From contig CBDCJV010000002.1 in assembly GCA_965217895.1 (NCBI GenBank), positions 1,920,001 to 1,984,000 on the forward strand: a stretch of DNA of 64,000 bases, given 5' to 3'. Numbering within the stretch: the stretch's first letter is position 1; each line of letters starts with the position of its first letter. The notes below the pieces were generated by a model, which saw nothing but the letters and a program-made list of their open reading frames with translations, made no database searches and had not been told where the DNA came from. Source of the stretch: Waterburya sp. GTDB taxonomy: Bacteria > Cyanobacteriota > Cyanobacteriia > Cyanobacteriales > Xenococcaceae. Made by a program: the position numbers and the translations under genes. This document shows, in pieces, positions 12,999-17,636 of this stretch.

Positions 12999-13023
12999 CT
13001 AAGTGATTATTAATTAAGTCAAT

Positions 13024-13212
13024 ATGCAAACTACTTCTGAATATACCTGCGCTTTTTGTGGCGAGTCTAATAGCACTTTCATCGATCTAAGCGCGGGAAT
13101 GCAGCAGTCTTATACCGAAGATTGCCAGGTGTGTTGCCGTCCTAATGTTTTATATATTTGTGTTGATGAAGATACTCTAGATGTTCAAATTAACAGCGAT
13201 TATGAAGAATAG
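13024..13212 (+). CDS. Small CPXCG-type cysteine-rich protein
   Basis: CAFCGE...YTEDCQVCCRP pattern. Confidence 0.85.
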   Translation: MQTTSEYTCAFCGESNSTFIDLSAGMQQSYTEDCQVCCRPNVLYICVDEDTLDVQINSDYEE

Positions 13213-13673
13213 GATTTAAGTAATTTCATTTAAATAACCTGAGTTCGGGATAAGAAAAAGGACAGGTAGTAAGCTGAAAATAACAACTTTCTTCAGTAAA
13301 CCTGCCCTATGTTTAGTTTAGATGCTTTATTTTGTGATGTAGACGATTTTTGTCTTGTTTTTGAACCTGAATGGCAAAAGAAGTTGCTAAGTCATGGCGG
13401 AATAAAAAGACGCAGAGCGAAAAACCTCTGTTTGAGTGAAATAATGACGATTTTAATTGCGTTTCATCAAAATCACTATCGCAATTTTAAACACTTTTAT
13501 CTTGACTATGTAAAACAGCATTGGCATTTGGCTTTTCCAGGACTTCCTAGCTATCAAAGATTTGTGGAATGGACTCCTTCAACTTTAATTCCGTTGTGTG
13601 TCTACCTCAAACGTTGTTTTGGAAACTGTACAGGGATTGGTTTTGTTGATGCTACTAGTCTCAAAGTTTGTCA

Positions 13674-13721
13674 ACACGGTGGTTGTATAAGCTGGGGAAA
13701 CCCCAGCATACCCCACCGTCA
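13674..13721. repeat. 48-bp palindromic micro-insertion 1 in transposase
   Basis: ACGGTGG..GTAT..GCTGGGG-AAA-CCCCAGC-ATAC..CCACCGT, with GTCA repeated at both ends. Removal restores KVCHNRR. Confidence 0.85.
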
Positions 13722-13795
13722 CAATCGCCGAATTAAACGCCACAAAGTTTTTGATGGTTTAGCTCAAAGAGGTAAAACTTCGGTTGATTGGTTTT

Positions 13796-13843
13796 GCGGT
13801 GCGACCCCGCTGGGGTTTCCCCAGCATGGGAACGCGCACCAAG
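13796..13843. repeat. 48-bp palindromic micro-insertion 2 in transposase
   Basis: GGTGCG..GCTGGGG-TTT-CCCCAGC..CGCACC. Removal restores WFYGFKLHL. Confidence 0.85.
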
Positions 13844-14175
13844 ATGGTTTTAAGCTCCACTTAGTAGTCAACGAGATCGGTCAACTGTTAAATGCTCAAC
13901 TTACTCCTGGAAACTTTGATGATCGTCGTCCTATTCCTGACTTGCTTCAAGGTCTTTTTGGTAAATTTTTTGCAGACAGAGGCTATGTCTCCCAAAAGCT
14001 TGCTAATCAATTGCTCGAAGAGTTTGGGATTCAGTTTTTTGCTAAACCCAGACGTAATATGAAGAATAAATTAATGCGACTTCATGACAAACTTCTATCC
14101 CGCCACCGATCAATTATTGAGACAATTAATGACCAACTCAAAAATATTTCTCAAATCGAACATTCTCGCCATCGA

Positions 14176-14196
14176 TTGCGAAGCTAGCCGAAGGCA
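14176..14196. repeat. 21-bp micro-insertion in a HIP1-like site (SDR5-like)
   Basis: TTGCGAAGCTAGCCGAAGGCA inserted in CGA^TCGC. Removal restores HSRHRSPV. Confidence 0.8.
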
Positions 14197-14711
14197 TCGC
14201 CAGTAAGTTTTTGCGTTAATGTTCTTTGTGGATTAATCGCTTATTGTCATCAACCTAAAAAGCCTAGTCTCCGCCTTGATTGGCTTTTGCCTCAATCTGC
14301 TTAACCCGAACTCAGGTTAACTAATTTTTATTAAGTTGGCAACTATATTTTAAAAATAAGAAAAAATACTTAGTTGCAAATGTAAAAATACTGAGATTAA
14401 CTTTAAACATCAGTTAATCTCTTGTTTAAATTTAGGTAGGCTTTCGGATGTCTATTAGCTGACAAACATCTAATAATTAGAACAGAAAGCTACAAAATAA
14501 AAAGTAAATCAAACATATGAAATATTATTTTTTGATTGACTTTAAACAAACCAAAAGCTAGGAGTTGCTAAAAAGCTTTTTTAGAACAATTTCGTAATTA
14601 GCTAAGGTTCAGTTTGTTTTGTAACTAAAAAAGAAAATGCGGTCAAATATATTCAGTCTGCAAACTAGTAGATTTCACCGCAAATGTTTAATGAATTGTT
14701 TTGTGATTCTT

Positions 14712-15590
14712 ATGGCTGAAAATGCTAACACAGGTGCTAGTGATCGAGCAAGAAGTAGCCAAGATCAATTAGATCTTGATAACACAGAATGGGTGCAAAT
14801 TGCCCCAGATAAAGTAGTAGTAGCTACTGCTGAGCGTGCTTGGTTGTATCAATCTCGTTCTGCTGACGATCGCTTTGCTCAACCAATGGAAGGTGCTGGT
14901 AGTTTTGCTACCACTCGGAAGTTGTTAGATACGGCGATCGCTGCTGCTAAATGTGCAGTCAAGTCTGAACTCAGACCACCTGCGTTGACCTCTATTCGCT
15001 GGATTTGGCGATTGGCTGGTGCTTACCACATGACTTTTTCTGTCCCAGATCTAATGAGAAATGTTGCTAAAAGCTTTGCTGTTAATAGCCGTTTTGCATT
15101 AGAAGAGTGGGCTTTAGAAAAAGCTGAAGAGGAAACAGGTCACGATCGCCTAGCTTTGCTCGATATTCAGTCCTTGGGATACGATGCTGAGGCTGTGGTT
15201 GAGACTCTTGTTCCTCCTGCTGCTGTTGCTTTGATGGATTATTTTACTCGTAGTGCCAAAGATAGTAATCCAATCGATTGTGTGGGCTACACCTATACAA
15301 TGGAACGTTTATCTTTGGGCATTGAGGAAGAATATATCCAAAAGGTTGAAGCTTTGCTTCCGACTCAGACCAATGCTACTCGCTGTCTGCGCGTACATAG
15401 TTCCGTTGGTGCTGATGCTGGACACGCAGTAGAAAATGTTTCACTAGTAGCAGGGCTTACTGCCTCTGAACGAACTCGTGTGGCAAGAGCTTGTTATGAA
15501 ACTGCACTTATGTCTTTTAGTCCACCACCTGGAGGCTATATTTCTGATCTTGAGCTTCAGCAAACTCTAGAGTCATTTAAGCTTAATTGA
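14712..15590 (+). CDS. Heme-oxygenase-like diiron oxidase (iron-containing redox enzyme / HDO superfamily)
   Basis: Diiron-type motifs AEEETGHDRLAL, GYTYTMERL and RVHSSVGADAGH. Probable start is MAENAN at 14712; the ORF is open from 14637. Confidence 0.75.
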   Translation: MAENANTGASDRARSSQDQLDLDNTEWVQIAPDKVVVATAERAWLYQSRSADDRFAQPMEGAGSFATTRKLLDTAIAAAKCAVKSELRPPALTSIRWIWRLAGAYHMTFSVPDLMRNVAKSFAVNSRFALEEWALEKAEEETGHDRLALLDIQSLGYDAEAVVETLVPPAAVALMDYFTRSAKDSNPIDCVGYTYTMERLSLGIEEEYIQKVEALLPTQTNATRCLRVHSSVGADAGHAVENVSLVAGLTASERTRVARACYETALMSFSPPPGGYISDLELQQTLESFKLN

Positions 15591-15691
15591 TTCTATTAAG
15601 TTGATTTAAGCCTAGTCACAAAATAATTCATCAACCAAGAACAAACAGTTTTTGGTACAAATTAACAATTAAAAATTCACGGAGAATAAAT

Positions 15692-15838
15692 ATGAATACT
15701 GCAACAGCTACTCAAATCAAACACGTTGAAAATACTCTAGAAATTTTGAACCAATTTGGCATCGAAATCGATTTGGACAATATTTTGGCTAAAGAGTTTG
15801 AAGCAGGATTATCTAGTGATATTAGCAACTGCATTTAA
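15692..15838 (+). CDS. 48-aa peptide, putative RiPP precursor: MNTATATQIKHVENTLEILNQFGIEIDLDNILAKEFEAGLSSDISNCI
   Basis: GGAGAA RBS at 15681-15686, ATG at 15692, TAA at 15836-15838. Lies 101 bp downstream of the HDO gene on the same strand and upstream of a terminator. Below the ORF track's size cut-off. Confidence 0.7.
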   Translation: MNTATATQIKHVENTLEILNQFGIEIDLDNILAKEFEAGLSSDISNCI

Positions 15839-15926
15839 AATTTAAGGCTTAACGTCAATTAGAAAAAAGCACTTTTTTCGCTTTTCATTTATTTATAGAT
15901 AACGCCTGTTGAAGGCTAAAAATACT

Positions 15927-15989
15927 ACCTCACTGAGCTTAATTTTTACTTGAAAATAAACTCAGTGAGGTGTTTCTTTTGTTTTTTTT
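15927..15989 (+). terminator. Intrinsic terminator closing the HDO-peptide unit
   Basis: ACCTCACTGAGCTTA (15927-15941) / TAAACTCAGTGAGGT (15957-15971) inverted repeat followed by GTTTCTTTTGTTTTTTTT. Confidence 0.85.
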
Positions 15990-15998
15990 AAATTTTCT

Positions 15999-17636
15999 TT
16001 AGTTTAATTGTTCTGATAAAGTAGATTTACTCGCGATCGCTGTTGCTTCATCCAGATGTTTAACTAGTGTTTTTTGGGGTAATGCGCCTTGGATATGCTG
16101 CCAGGGAAGAATCTGCTTACCTGAATCCCAATGGTCATGAACATAGTAATCTAAGGTGGGTATTTGCCCTCGCAGTTGTTTAAAGGCTCGTTTGTAGCTG
16201 CCTACAGAGTCACCATATTCTCTGGTTAATTGCAGCAGCTTTCCTAAACGGCGATCACCACGAGAAATTAAAGCCTGAATTACTGACCAATTATAGCTTT
16301 CAGGGCGAAAATCAATACCTTGTTGGCGCAGATTTTTCTCTAGATATTTAAGTCTTTTCTTGGCTTCGGGATTGACTCCAAACCATTGAAAGGGAGTGTG
16401 AGATTTTGGTACAAAGGTGCTGCATCCTAAAGTCAGGCGTAAACTAGGCACAGCTTTTTTAATTGCCGACATCATGGACACAGTTGCTTCTACATCAGCC
16501 ATATCTTCCCCTGGAATGCCAACCATTCCGTAAAGCTTAAGGGCTTTTAATCCTCCTGCTTTGGCATTGATAGCTGCTTGAATAATTTCGTCGTTAGTGA
16601 GTTTTTTATTGACGATCTGTCTAACTTTGGCTGAACCACTTTCTACAGCAATGGTAATTGAACGGGTATTACGGTTTGCTAAGGTAGCAGCCAGCTTTTC
16701 TGTGACGGTGTTAGTACGCACTGAAGCAATACTAAGACGCACATCTTCATATTGAGGCTGAGATAGATAATCCAAGATGGCTGCAAATTCTGGATGCTGG
16801 GTTACAGATGCGCCTAATAAACCCAAACGCTTAGTAACTTTCAAACCTTTTTCAATAGCAGGAATTAAAGAGTCATTTAAAGATGCAGTACGAAATGGCA
16901 AAGTCAAATAGCTAGCTAAACAGAAGCGACACATTTCAGGACAACTGCGGACAACCTCCACCATATAAATATTCTCCCAGGCTGCCTTTTCCGTAACCAC
17001 GGTAGAAGCCGAGAGAGTATTGCCACGATAGGTTTGTTTTTGAACTGCTGCGGGAATATCAGGATCGACAGGTGCGATCGCCTTGATTTCGCCATCAGGA
17101 GCATGATAAGTTACTTCGTATAGACTGGGAATATAAATACCTGGGACTTGGGCTAGATGCTTAAGCTTAGTCAAGCGGTCTGCGTTTCTTACCTGTTGAT
17201 AAGCATCAATAAAGCTATCGAGTAAATTCTCTCCATCTCCTAGCAAAATTACATCAAAGAAATCAGCAAAAGGTTCAGGGTTAGCGGTTAAAACCGTTCC
17301 TCCTCCGAATACTAGAGGATGATCGTTTTGTCTATCGATGCTCTCAAGAGGAATATCTAAAGACTCCAATAGATTAAAAATATTAATATAATCTAGTTCC
17401 CAGGATACCGAAAAACCCAGTAATTCGGGATTTCTGGGTAGAGTTTCGCTTAGGTCAGTAAATAGGCGACTAACATCAACATCAGAACGCATTGCCAAAG
17501 TCGCCCAAACGATTTGAAAACCCAAACTAGTAATACCAATGGTGTATTCATTAGGAAAAGCAAAAATAGCGGGAATGGCGTTGGTCTTTGGAGTTGCAGG
17601 AGTAAATAACAGACGTTCTTGTTGAAATACAGTCAC
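15999..17636 (-). CDS. Radical SAM protein (B12-binding-like N-terminal domain)
   Basis: EVVRSCPEMCRFC (CxxxCxxC); N-terminal FPNEYTIGITSLG and GFSVSWELDY. Confidence 0.9.
   Translation of the reverse strand: MTVFQQERLLFTPATPKTNAIPAIFAFPNEYTIGITSLGFQIVWATLAMRSDVDVSRLFTDLSETLPRNPELLGFSVSWELDYINIFNLLESLDIPLESIDRQNDHPLVFGGGTVLTANPEPFADFFDVILLGDGENLLDSFIDAYQQVRNADRLTKLKHLAQVPGIYIPSLYEVTYHAPDGEIKAIAPVDPDIPAAVQKQTYRGNTLSASTVVTEKAAWENIYMVEVVRSCPEMCRFCLASYLTLPFRTASLNDSLIPAIEKGLKVTKRLGLLGASVTQHPEFAAILDYLSQPQYEDVRLSIASVRTNTVTEKLAATLANRNTRSITIAVESGSAKVRQIVNKKLTNDEIIQAAINAKAGGLKALKLYGMVGIPGEDMADVEATVSMMSAIKKAVPSLRLTLGCSTFVPKSHTPFQWFGVNPEAKKRLKYLEKNLRQQGIDFRPESYNWSVIQALISRGDRRLGKLLQLTREYGDSVGSYKRAFKQLRGQIPTLDYYVHDHWDSGKQILPWQHIQGALPQKTLVKHLDEATAIASKSTLSEQLN

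Follow-up and report, generated by a model that had tools for sequence, protein, structure and literature searches.

The heme-oxygenase-like di-iron oxidases (HDOs) that act on small molecules carry their metal ligands in an E-x-x-H / E / H / D-x-x-H pattern. Their substrates, according to the available text of a 2026 mini-review (PMC13108848), are fatty acids, amino acids or residues of the enzyme itself, and none of these HDOs is reported with a gene-encoded peptide substrate. The element described here is an HDO gene followed by a 48-aa peptide gene in a 64,000-nt stretch of the genome of the cyanobacterium Waterburya sp. (GenBank assembly GCA_965217895.1, contig CBDCJV010000002.1, positions 1,920,001 to 1,984,000; this whole stretch is called the window below). 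Our results suggest that the HDO binds the conserved middle of the peptide and oxidizes its fixed-length C-terminal tail. The two would then form an enzyme-substrate pair like those of the peptides that are made by the ribosome and modified after translation (RiPPs), with the HDO as the defining and only nearby maturase, and we regard this as the probable reading of the locus.

The full-text literature, a body of text that most subscription-journal papers lie outside, yielded a single link between a heme-oxygenase-like protein or HDO and a RiPP, namely VarO of the thiovarsolins. VarO is a heme-oxygenase-like protein encoded in the thiovarsolin cluster of Streptomyces varsoviensis, where it is an accessory dehydrogenase in a YcaO/TfuA thioamide pathway; in the portion of the paper available, its authors call it unclear whether VarO acts on the peptide or after proteolysis (PMC6511847). 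The mini-review cites that same paper for the modification of ribosomal peptides (PMC13108848, available text). As in the thiovarsolin cluster, where VarO is described as needed for the oxidative change of the product, a dehydrogenation, a heme-oxygenase-like protein is here encoded together with a ribosomal peptide. Unlike in the VarO cluster, no enzyme other than the HDO accompanies the peptide from locus to locus, and the HDO has a predicted peptide-docking surface of its own. Neither YcaO nor TfuA was found among the recurrent neighbors or the scanned proteins of the HDO loci, the singleton neighbors having been scanned in part. A further comparison is with the MNIO (DUF692) enzymes, whose fold is a TIM-barrel. 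Like MbnB/MbnC with MbnA and other MNIO systems, as far as the accessible text of the sources describes them, the present system would combine a multi-iron, O2-dependent enzyme with a short ribosomal precursor and with leader recognition (PMC9060507; bioRxiv 10.64898/2026.07.17.739211). In contrast to the MNIOs, our HDO is predicted to be a heme-oxygenase-like helical bundle that matches only PF14518, with no match to PF05114 (MNIO / DUF692, the domain of MbnB, TglH and ChrH) in the Pfam scan, and whereas a separate partner protein binds the peptide in the MNIO systems, recognition is here predicted to be built into the HDO. Neither Pfam, NCBIfam nor the full-text literature provided a curated family or a paper describing the HDO and peptide pair, in agreement with a preliminary description of this locus, made from the letters of the sequence, which did not recognize in it a described RiPP class.

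That preliminary description had proposed a candidate minimal RiPP system in which a small open reading frame (ORF) behind the HDO gene encodes the precursor. The features it had read, namely the 292-aa ORF with its motifs EEETGH, YTMER and HSSVGADAGH, the 101-nt gap between the HDO stop and the peptide ATG, the GGAGAA site, the 48-aa ORF and the terminator, are all present where it had placed them, and conservation of the peptide behind HDO homologs, which it had named as a check, was found at two scales. Of 61 related genomes sampled, 29 have the HDO (that of the window, 27 from among the 36 other genomes of the genus and one from another genus), and the 21 loci fetched from them, about 20 kb each, hold 24 HDO ORFs. 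Searches by tBLASTn with the 48-aa peptide gave matches directly beside HDO genes, often several in a row, and an iterative hidden Markov model (HMM) applied to all small ORFs of these loci recovered 46 distinct peptides of 41-50 aa. By this model, 20 of the 24 HDO ORFs are followed closely, on their own strand, by between one and five peptide genes. The four that have none are two paralogs without metal ligands, a third paralog in which H229 and D235 are replaced, and the HDO from the other genus, which has in the peptide's place a 148-aa ORF with a related C-terminal part.

A wider scan, with the HDO alignment as query and one genome per species, found 168 relatives, for which 76 loci were returned. 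Four of these stop within 100 nt of the HDO gene and so could not be assessed; among the remaining 72, a peptide recognized by the HMM lies downstream of the HDO, on its strand, in 63. By their titles the loci closest to the window are from Waterburya, Pleurocapsa and Xenococcus, and the further genera are Nostoc, Anabaena, Fischerella, Chlorogloeopsis, Scytonema, Tolypothrix, Fortiea, Mastigocoleus, Iningainema, Chroococcidiopsis and Hydrococcus, together with a Thermosynechococcaceae metagenome-assembled genome (MAG). The peptide-positive loci span Pleurocapsales, Nostocales and others, and include Nostoc, Scytonema, Tolypothrix, Mastigocoleus, Chroococcidiopsis and the Thermosynechococcaceae MAG. 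At the equivalent position in eight of the nine HMM-negative loci there is a 96-102-aa ORF with a hydrophobic N-terminal segment and an EEI(D/N)LDKEW motif; the iterative HMM did not join these ORFs to the peptide family, and their kinship rests on their position, on a short motif recognized by eye and on the grouping of their HDOs in one clade. Behind the HDO of locus L160 nothing recognizable was found. The HDO and the peptide are conserved as a unit across cyanobacterial orders, and what these loci contain is a short gene-encoded peptide kept as a pair with an adjacent enzyme, the arrangement by which a RiPP precursor is recognized.

Judged by its pattern of substitution, the peptide is a real, conserved gene under purifying selection, with a median ratio of nonsynonymous to synonymous substitution rates (dN/dS) of 0.28 and all 487 usable pairs below 1 (44 genes; usable pairs being those of the 946 with dS 0.1-2). 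A profile of 68 C-terminal segments, run against 1.84 billion proteins, found 136 representatives (50% clustering), of which 39 reach E <= 1e-10, and the matches extend to the C-terminal end. A phylum-wide search with a profile built from the genus alone gave matches in 9 of 401 genomes at E <= 0.01, of which three are credible (the window's genome, one relative in the genus and one outside genome, G418), the other six lying inside long ORFs; the count that this profile gave for the family is too low, since the peptides of Nostocales have diverged and are longer. One NCBI genome annotates a 48-aa homolog as a hypothetical protein. No Pfam or NCBIfam family reached its cut-off on the peptide variants scanned, and a protein atlas returned only unnamed clusters for them, with scores of 0.90-0.91 that amount to no evidence. 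Tandem copies of the peptide gene are common, with 2-5 per locus. In relatives with two or three copies the repeat unit is about 224 bp, equivalent to 15666-15889 of the window; it starts about 26 nt 5′ of the ATG and ends about 50 nt 3′ of the stop, so that each copy has its own ribosome-binding site. Two loci, L122 (Scytonema sp. HK-05 plasmid1) and L150, have two convergent HDO genes, each with three tandem peptide genes of its own type, and in Scytonema sp. HK-05 the whole double cassette is on a plasmid.

The anatomy of the peptide is consistent with a docking segment followed by a tail of set length. The family consensus is ..(I/M)E(L/I/F)(D/E)L(D/E)xI(L/M)..EF..(G/E)L(P/S/A)(S/N)D(I/L)xxx-hydrophobic-COOH, always at the end of the protein. 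All 44 peptides compared have the Leu that is Leu28 in the window's peptide. Of 135 representatives, 84 have a G-hydrophobic-x-x-(D/G/E/N) block among their last 14 residues; the other 51 mostly have E in place of the G with the spacing unchanged, as judged by eye. The tail that follows the block in those 84 is of 5 residues in 61, 6 in 21 and 4 in 2, and 76 of them end in F, L, V, I, M, W or Y (the last residue being F in 29, L in 15, V in 12, I in 11, A in 5, M in 4, W in 3, Y in 2, H in 2 and N in 1). Among 33 pairs of tandem copies within a locus, 30 of the 111 differences fall in the last five residues and only 2 at positions 6-12 from the end, which correspond to the G-L-x-x-D block. The preliminary description had read the peptide as a leader-core precursor. 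The leader part of that proposal would agree with the conserved, docking-type middle predicted by the co-fold described below; a freely varying core does not, as the C-terminal part consists of the rigid G-L-x-x-D block, a fixed tail of 5-6 residues and a hydrophobic end.

Some relatives have longer ORFs downstream of the HDO, of 96-152 aa and with a signal-peptide-like N-terminal segment. They are L130:4983-5441, L144:4879-5337 and L072:9137-9583 (-), and those just behind the HDO in L116, L119-L121, L127, L128, L135 and L138. They end either in Cys-Cys or in an ..ILLA..-type end after (E)LDLD / EEIDLDKEW, each type pairs with its own HDO clade, and from their sequences these ORFs may encode forms of the precursor that are exported or anchored in the membrane.

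The membership of the 292-aa protein in the HDO superfamily, also put forward in the preliminary description together with a profile and structure comparison as the way to examine it, is borne out by both kinds of comparison. The protein passes the cut-off of PF14518 (Haem_oxygenas_2) with 31.3 bits against 28.9 over residues 105-267, and this is the sole Pfam family returned at E <= 1. The AlphaFold model, built on an alignment of 35 homologs (predicted local distance difference test score, pLDDT, 87.8; predicted template-modeling score, pTM, 0.86), is a helical bundle with a three-strand sheet ahead of it (26-31, 34-38 and 43-47) that the shorter solved relatives are without. Foldseek matched the model to TenA homologs, UndA, 3dde (a structural-genomics protein), CADD, HrmI, PolF, AetD and PqqC, with a probability of 1.00 for the TenA homolog 3oql, UndA (4wx0/6p5q), 3dde, CADD (1rcw) and HrmI (9n1x). 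By sequence, with the 35-homolog profile, the nearest solved chain is 3dde (E 3.4e-13), followed weakly by MboA (0.013). Like the solved small-molecule HDOs UndA, CADD, HrmI, PolF, AetD and MboA, the protein has the common fold and, at the level of sequence, the ligand pattern given above: E141 and E198 are invariant among the 35 homologs, H144, D235 and H238 are kept in at least 90%, and H229 is kept in 31 of the 35 by a manual count of alignment rows. The columns of the E-x-x-H, E and H..D-x-x-H motifs line up with those of 3dde, and what distinguishes the window's subfamily from the solved HDOs is the extra N-terminal three-strand sheet and, relative to 3dde, a two-residue insertion before the Asp in H..D-x-x-H. 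By Pfam cut-off, modeled fold and ligand motifs the gene product is an HDO, with metal binding predicted. Two distant paralogs, L078:2344-3264 (-) and L080:9327-10247 (+), have 40-41% identity and have lost the E-x-x-H and H..D-x-x-H ligands; no peptide gene lies behind them, each directly follows a ribbon-helix-helix (RHH) gene, and by sequence they look like pseudo-enzymes.

The co-fold of enzyme and peptide, which the preliminary description had named as a check, gave an interface score (ipSAE) of 0.80 (0.80, 0.84 and 0.74 in separate runs) against 0.12 for the best control, and passes the controls. The runs share at least 45% of their contacts, with a pLDDT of 69 or more for the partner. 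Of 157 solved complexes 116 attain the pass mark, as do 2 of 215 mismatched pairs, rates that are approximate here, our own alignments having been supplied. In the model, peptide residues 22-29 lie on HDO residues 42-47 and 73-81, and the contacts of lowest error join peptide L28 to HDO residues 73, 74, 76 and 77 and peptide residues 23-26 to HDO residues 42-45. L72, D73 and A77 do not vary among the 35 HDOs aligned, and because the contacts of L28 lie among them, the most conserved residue of the peptide would sit on the most conserved N-terminal surface of the enzyme. The tail, residues 38-48, touches HDO residues 168-174, 196-203, 208-215, 229 and 264-271, which belong to the helices carrying E198 and H229. 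On a quick maximum-likelihood tree of 72 HDOs, the owners of the long EEIDLDKEW-type ORFs form one clade of 8 and those of the signal-peptide-like Cys-Cys type a clade of 2, each with support 99, and both clades cut across the host orders. The HDO clades track the peptide types, with the types set partly by eye and kin sharing labels.

These data suggest a mechanism. The middle of the peptide (..G-I-E-I-D-L-D-N-I-L.., which includes Leu28) would dock on the HDO strand 43-47 and the nearly invariant first core helix, around L72, D73 and A77, a surface that may serve as a built-in leader-recognition site. Docking would thread the tail G-L-S-S-D-I-S-N-C-I-COOH into a cavity whose walls are the helices that bear the ligands, around E198 and H229, where the di-iron centre would activate O2 and oxidize the tail. 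As to the chemistry, UndA carries out a reaction of the carboxylate-directed type, a decarboxylation, on fatty acids. Our leading guess, which is tentative and of rather low probability, is that the reaction is likewise directed by the C-terminal carboxylate, for example as an oxidative decarboxylation or desaturation of the last residue, given that the docking motif stands at an almost constant distance from the C-terminus and that the final position is mostly taken by a hydrophobic residue; the alternative is oxidation or cross-linking at the conserved Asp/Asn positions. An Asp-to-aminomalonate cascade that was considered for comparison uses HD-domain enzymes, not HDOs, according to the available text (PMC12186529). 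In most of the genomes a large convergent regulator-like protein would probably sense the product or control the cassette.

That protein has a helix-turn-helix (HTH), NB-ARC and WD40 architecture of the STAND kind, is about 1,170-1,200 aa long and includes a pentapeptide region besides those of NB-ARC and WD40. Matches to its N-terminal 540 residues occur in 50 of the 76 loci, in 49 of them convergent and downstream of the peptide genes and in one upstream, at 40-100% identity (100% being the query's own genome and most others 51-66%), and clustering puts the protein in 55 of the 76. The first 100 residues gave weak, repeated matches to Cro/C1-type HTH families (HTH_26 in 5 of 13, HTH_3 in 3 of 13, best E 1.4e-5). 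Small regulators recur as well: RHH proteins lie directly upstream of the HDO in 4 of the 21 and 8 of the 76 loci, and an AraC-type regulator lies divergently upstream in 12 of the 76, with a 188-aa protein without a Pfam, NCBIfam or PADLOC match in 9 of the 76. The AraC/188-aa arrangement is found in Nostocales and some Pleurocapsales, for example L147:733-1407 (-) and L131:1611-2174 (-). The proposal that the system is minimal therefore holds for the window's copy, which has no STAND gene next to it; elsewhere the STAND protein and the small regulators accompany the pair. The window's genome has two STAND homologs, with 64% and 53% identity over the N-terminal 540 aa, at G000:C2:4320736-4324250 (L164/L167), 2.4 Mb away, and at G000:C1:26632-30250 (L165/L168), on a second, 87-kb contig, and neither has an HDO or peptide gene nearby. 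The window's clade has kept the pair without an adjacent STAND gene, with HDO identities of 89-91% and intact peptides. In HDO-less genomes the picture for the STAND protein is mixed, with best matches of 50%, 45% and 30%, one short match (37%, first 100 residues) and one genome with none, and these genomes give no clean phyletic link.

The combination recalls the FxSxx-COOH system, named in NCBIfam NF040586, which consists of a peptide, a radical-SAM/SPASM maturase and a STAND-repeat protein. In both, a large NB-ARC-type repeat protein and a maturase, here a putative one, accompany a peptide whose motif is tied to its free C-terminal end; the FxSxx-COOH maturase is a radical-SAM enzyme and the repeats are TPR, whereas here they are an HDO and WD40. 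The relation is one of analogy, not membership, as the STAND protein scores 45.3 bits against the NF040586 cut-off of 300 and the radical-SAM neighbor of the window's cassette is a core gene. Two other frames for the STAND protein were considered. PADLOC gave no match for the HDO or its peptide, nor for the RHH protein and the 188-aa neighbor, and matched the STAND protein to one candidate model through its WD40 repeats only; an anti-phage defence reading is unsupported without a match for the HDO or the peptide. In NLR-associated amyloid signaling pairs a short motif is common to the C-terminus of the small protein and the N-terminus of the STAND protein. For such pairs, which are the subject of bioRxiv 10.1101/2020.01.06.895854 (seen here in its available text), the resemblance is likewise unsupported, since BLASTP of the peptide against the first 160 STAND residues gave no alignment at E <= 100.

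Several points weigh against the HDO and the peptide being enzyme and substrate. The co-fold score is the model's own confidence and would support binding, not turnover; the loci of related genomes are not independent counts, and many of the 76 share genomes with the genus sample. By its sequence the N-terminal sheet of the HDO is not a RiPP recognition element (RRE), as the Pfam scan returned no PqqD-family match and the model has only the three-strand sheet before the first core helix, so that the likeness to an RRE would be one of binding mode and not of domain. No protease, exporter/transporter or second tailoring enzyme recurs near the pair in the loci that were annotated or clustered (21 and 76), which is unusual for a secreted RiPP, and in the window's copy the IS982 element lies 320 nt 5′ of the longest HDO ORF and the STAND gene is not adjacent. 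The characterized HDOs in the available text of the mini-review have small molecules or residues of the enzyme itself as their substrates (PMC13108848), and a fairly conserved tail also suits a fixed binding partner rather than a substrate. An alternative is that the peptide is a stoichiometric partner, that is, a regulatory, gating or scaffold subunit that fills the channel or tunes O2 activation, of an HDO that oxidizes a small molecule such as an amino acid. Such a subunit would explain the predicted binding, the G-L-x-x-D block conserved in the tail and the lack of a recurrent protease or exporter nearby, and would be in line with the precedents. However, the peptide occurs in tandem sets of 2-5 copies with differences concentrated in the last residues, which is typical of substrates and not of subunits; its free C-terminus is held at a fixed distance from the docking motif; and no gene to make or deliver a small-molecule substrate recurs beside the pair in the same neighborhoods. 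We consider the partner-subunit explanation unlikely.

It could also be that the two genes are co-transcribed and have separate roles, with the unmodified peptide acting as a ligand or anti-regulator of the STAND protein or of another target and the HDO acting on an unrelated substrate. The presence of the STAND gene in cis in 50 of the 76 loci, 49 of them convergent downstream, and the recurrence of RHH and AraC regulators nearby would suit such an arrangement. It would also gain a little from the single RNA-type run that covers any of the stretch, in which one marine metatranscriptome contig of 259 nt (depth 2.1, 96% identity) spans 15640-15894, which is the peptide gene with short flanks and none of the HDO gene; it hints weakly at transcription of the peptide gene in a relative, the uncovered parts being uninformative and DNA being able to occur in such libraries. 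Separate roles are difficult to square, however, with a co-fold that passes its controls and brings invariant residues of both proteins into contact, with HDO clades that track peptide types, with the persistence of the pair without an adjacent STAND gene in the window's clade, and with the paralogs that are without metal ligands and also without the peptide; we regard them as quite improbable. That the 48-aa ORF is a chance open frame in the 3′ untranslated region can hardly be credited. It is short and matches no Pfam or NCBIfam family at cut-off, but the purifying selection on it, the 46 distinct homologs of the genus sample and 136 representatives of the large library, the stop position fixed relative to the motif and the Shine-Dalgarno-like site before its ATG all speak for a gene, and the conservation effectively refutes this reading. 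As far as computation reaches, the enzyme-substrate pair proposed in the preliminary description is supported, with the modification itself predicted.

The features of the locus are collected in Table 1.

Table 1. Features at and around the HDO-peptide cassette (window coordinates).
Feature	Coordinates	Strand	Remarks
IS982 insertion	13238..14316	+	Transposase ORF 13309-14187; lies upstream of the HDO gene and does not belong to the system
HDO (heme-oxygenase-like di-iron oxidase) gene	14712..15590	+	292 aa; ATG 14712, stop 15588-15590
Shine-Dalgarno-like GGAGAA	15682..15687	+	Five bases 5′ of the peptide ATG at 15692; read from the sequence
Peptide gene, predicted HDO substrate (precursor)	15692..15838	+	48 aa; ORF, conservation and co-fold
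Intrinsic-terminator-like hairpin	15928..15989	+	Arms 15928-15937 / 15961-15970, T-rich run to 15989
Radical-SAM gene, B12-binding type, TIGR03960-like	15999..17636	-	Pfam/NCBIfam; convergent with the cassette

Other in-frame ATGs at 14637 and 14691 leave the true start of the HDO uncertain; its homologs begin to align at about 14712, and residues 1-17 of the model are disordered. The arms of the terminator-like hairpin pair as a 12-bp stem inside a structure of -34.9 kcal/mol when folded, and the hairpin separates the peptide gene from the convergent radical-SAM gene. A simple terminator scanner made no call there, we suppose because the loop is longer than the 8 nt that it allows. An Rfam search of 13000-16200 returned nothing relevant, and a promoter scan found no more sites than in shuffled sequence.

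The IS982 element that the preliminary description had placed beside the pair is confirmed by profile, by its ends and by its flanks. The transposase matches NF033520 (195 bits) and also PF13612, terminal inverted repeats (CCTGAGTTCGGG.. at the ends) bound the element, and the flanks TTAAATAA / TTAACTAA form a direct repeat of 8 bp with 7 of 8 positions matching. The element is absent from the exact site in three close relatives (L061, L062 and L063), in which the flanking sequences overlap by 8 bp. To judge from these sequences, this copy is a discrete, recent insertion, and it cuts the cassette off from its former upstream region. The matches of the transposase ORF to the profiles are broken into two or three stretches, which points to in-frame insertions relative to the family. 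A gene for a 62-aa cysteine-rich CPXCG protein (PF14255, 76.5 bits) lies at 13024-13212, between IS982 and the upstream 375-aa gene.

The radical-SAM gene was considered as a partner, since it adjoins the cassette in 8 of the 21 loci in either orientation, and was rejected as a core gene. It is present at 88-89% identity in five of five near-complete genomes of the genus without an HDO, and because it is found in HDO-less genomes its adjacency is positional. Five genomes of the genus (G007, G008, G022, G034 and G036) have, besides the core 545-aa gene, a second radical-SAM paralog of about 865 aa with 33-35% identity.

The copy in the window is an orphan pair beside a recent IS982 insertion, and the fuller form, with the STAND protein, is found in Nostocales or Xenococcus strains. 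A more far-reaching proposal is that of a cyanobacteria-wide peptide-signal module, in which a tail matured by the HDO, as a new RiPP class, yields a product that is read by the WD40 sensor of the STAND protein to switch transcription, with the tandem variants and paralogs as strain-specific "dialects"; we think it unlikely in this full form. If the HDO does act on the tail of its peptide, a gene-encoded peptide substrate with a docking site built into the enzyme would constitute a new branch of HDO chemistry and the HDO a new class-defining RiPP enzyme. The family is compact, with one enzyme and one peptide of 41-100 aa, and widespread in culturable Nostoc, Fischerella, Chlorogloeopsis, Scytonema and Xenococcus, and in the HTH-NB-ARC-WD40 protein encoded in cis there would be a concrete candidate for a STAND sensor of bacteria whose peptide ligand the cell makes itself.

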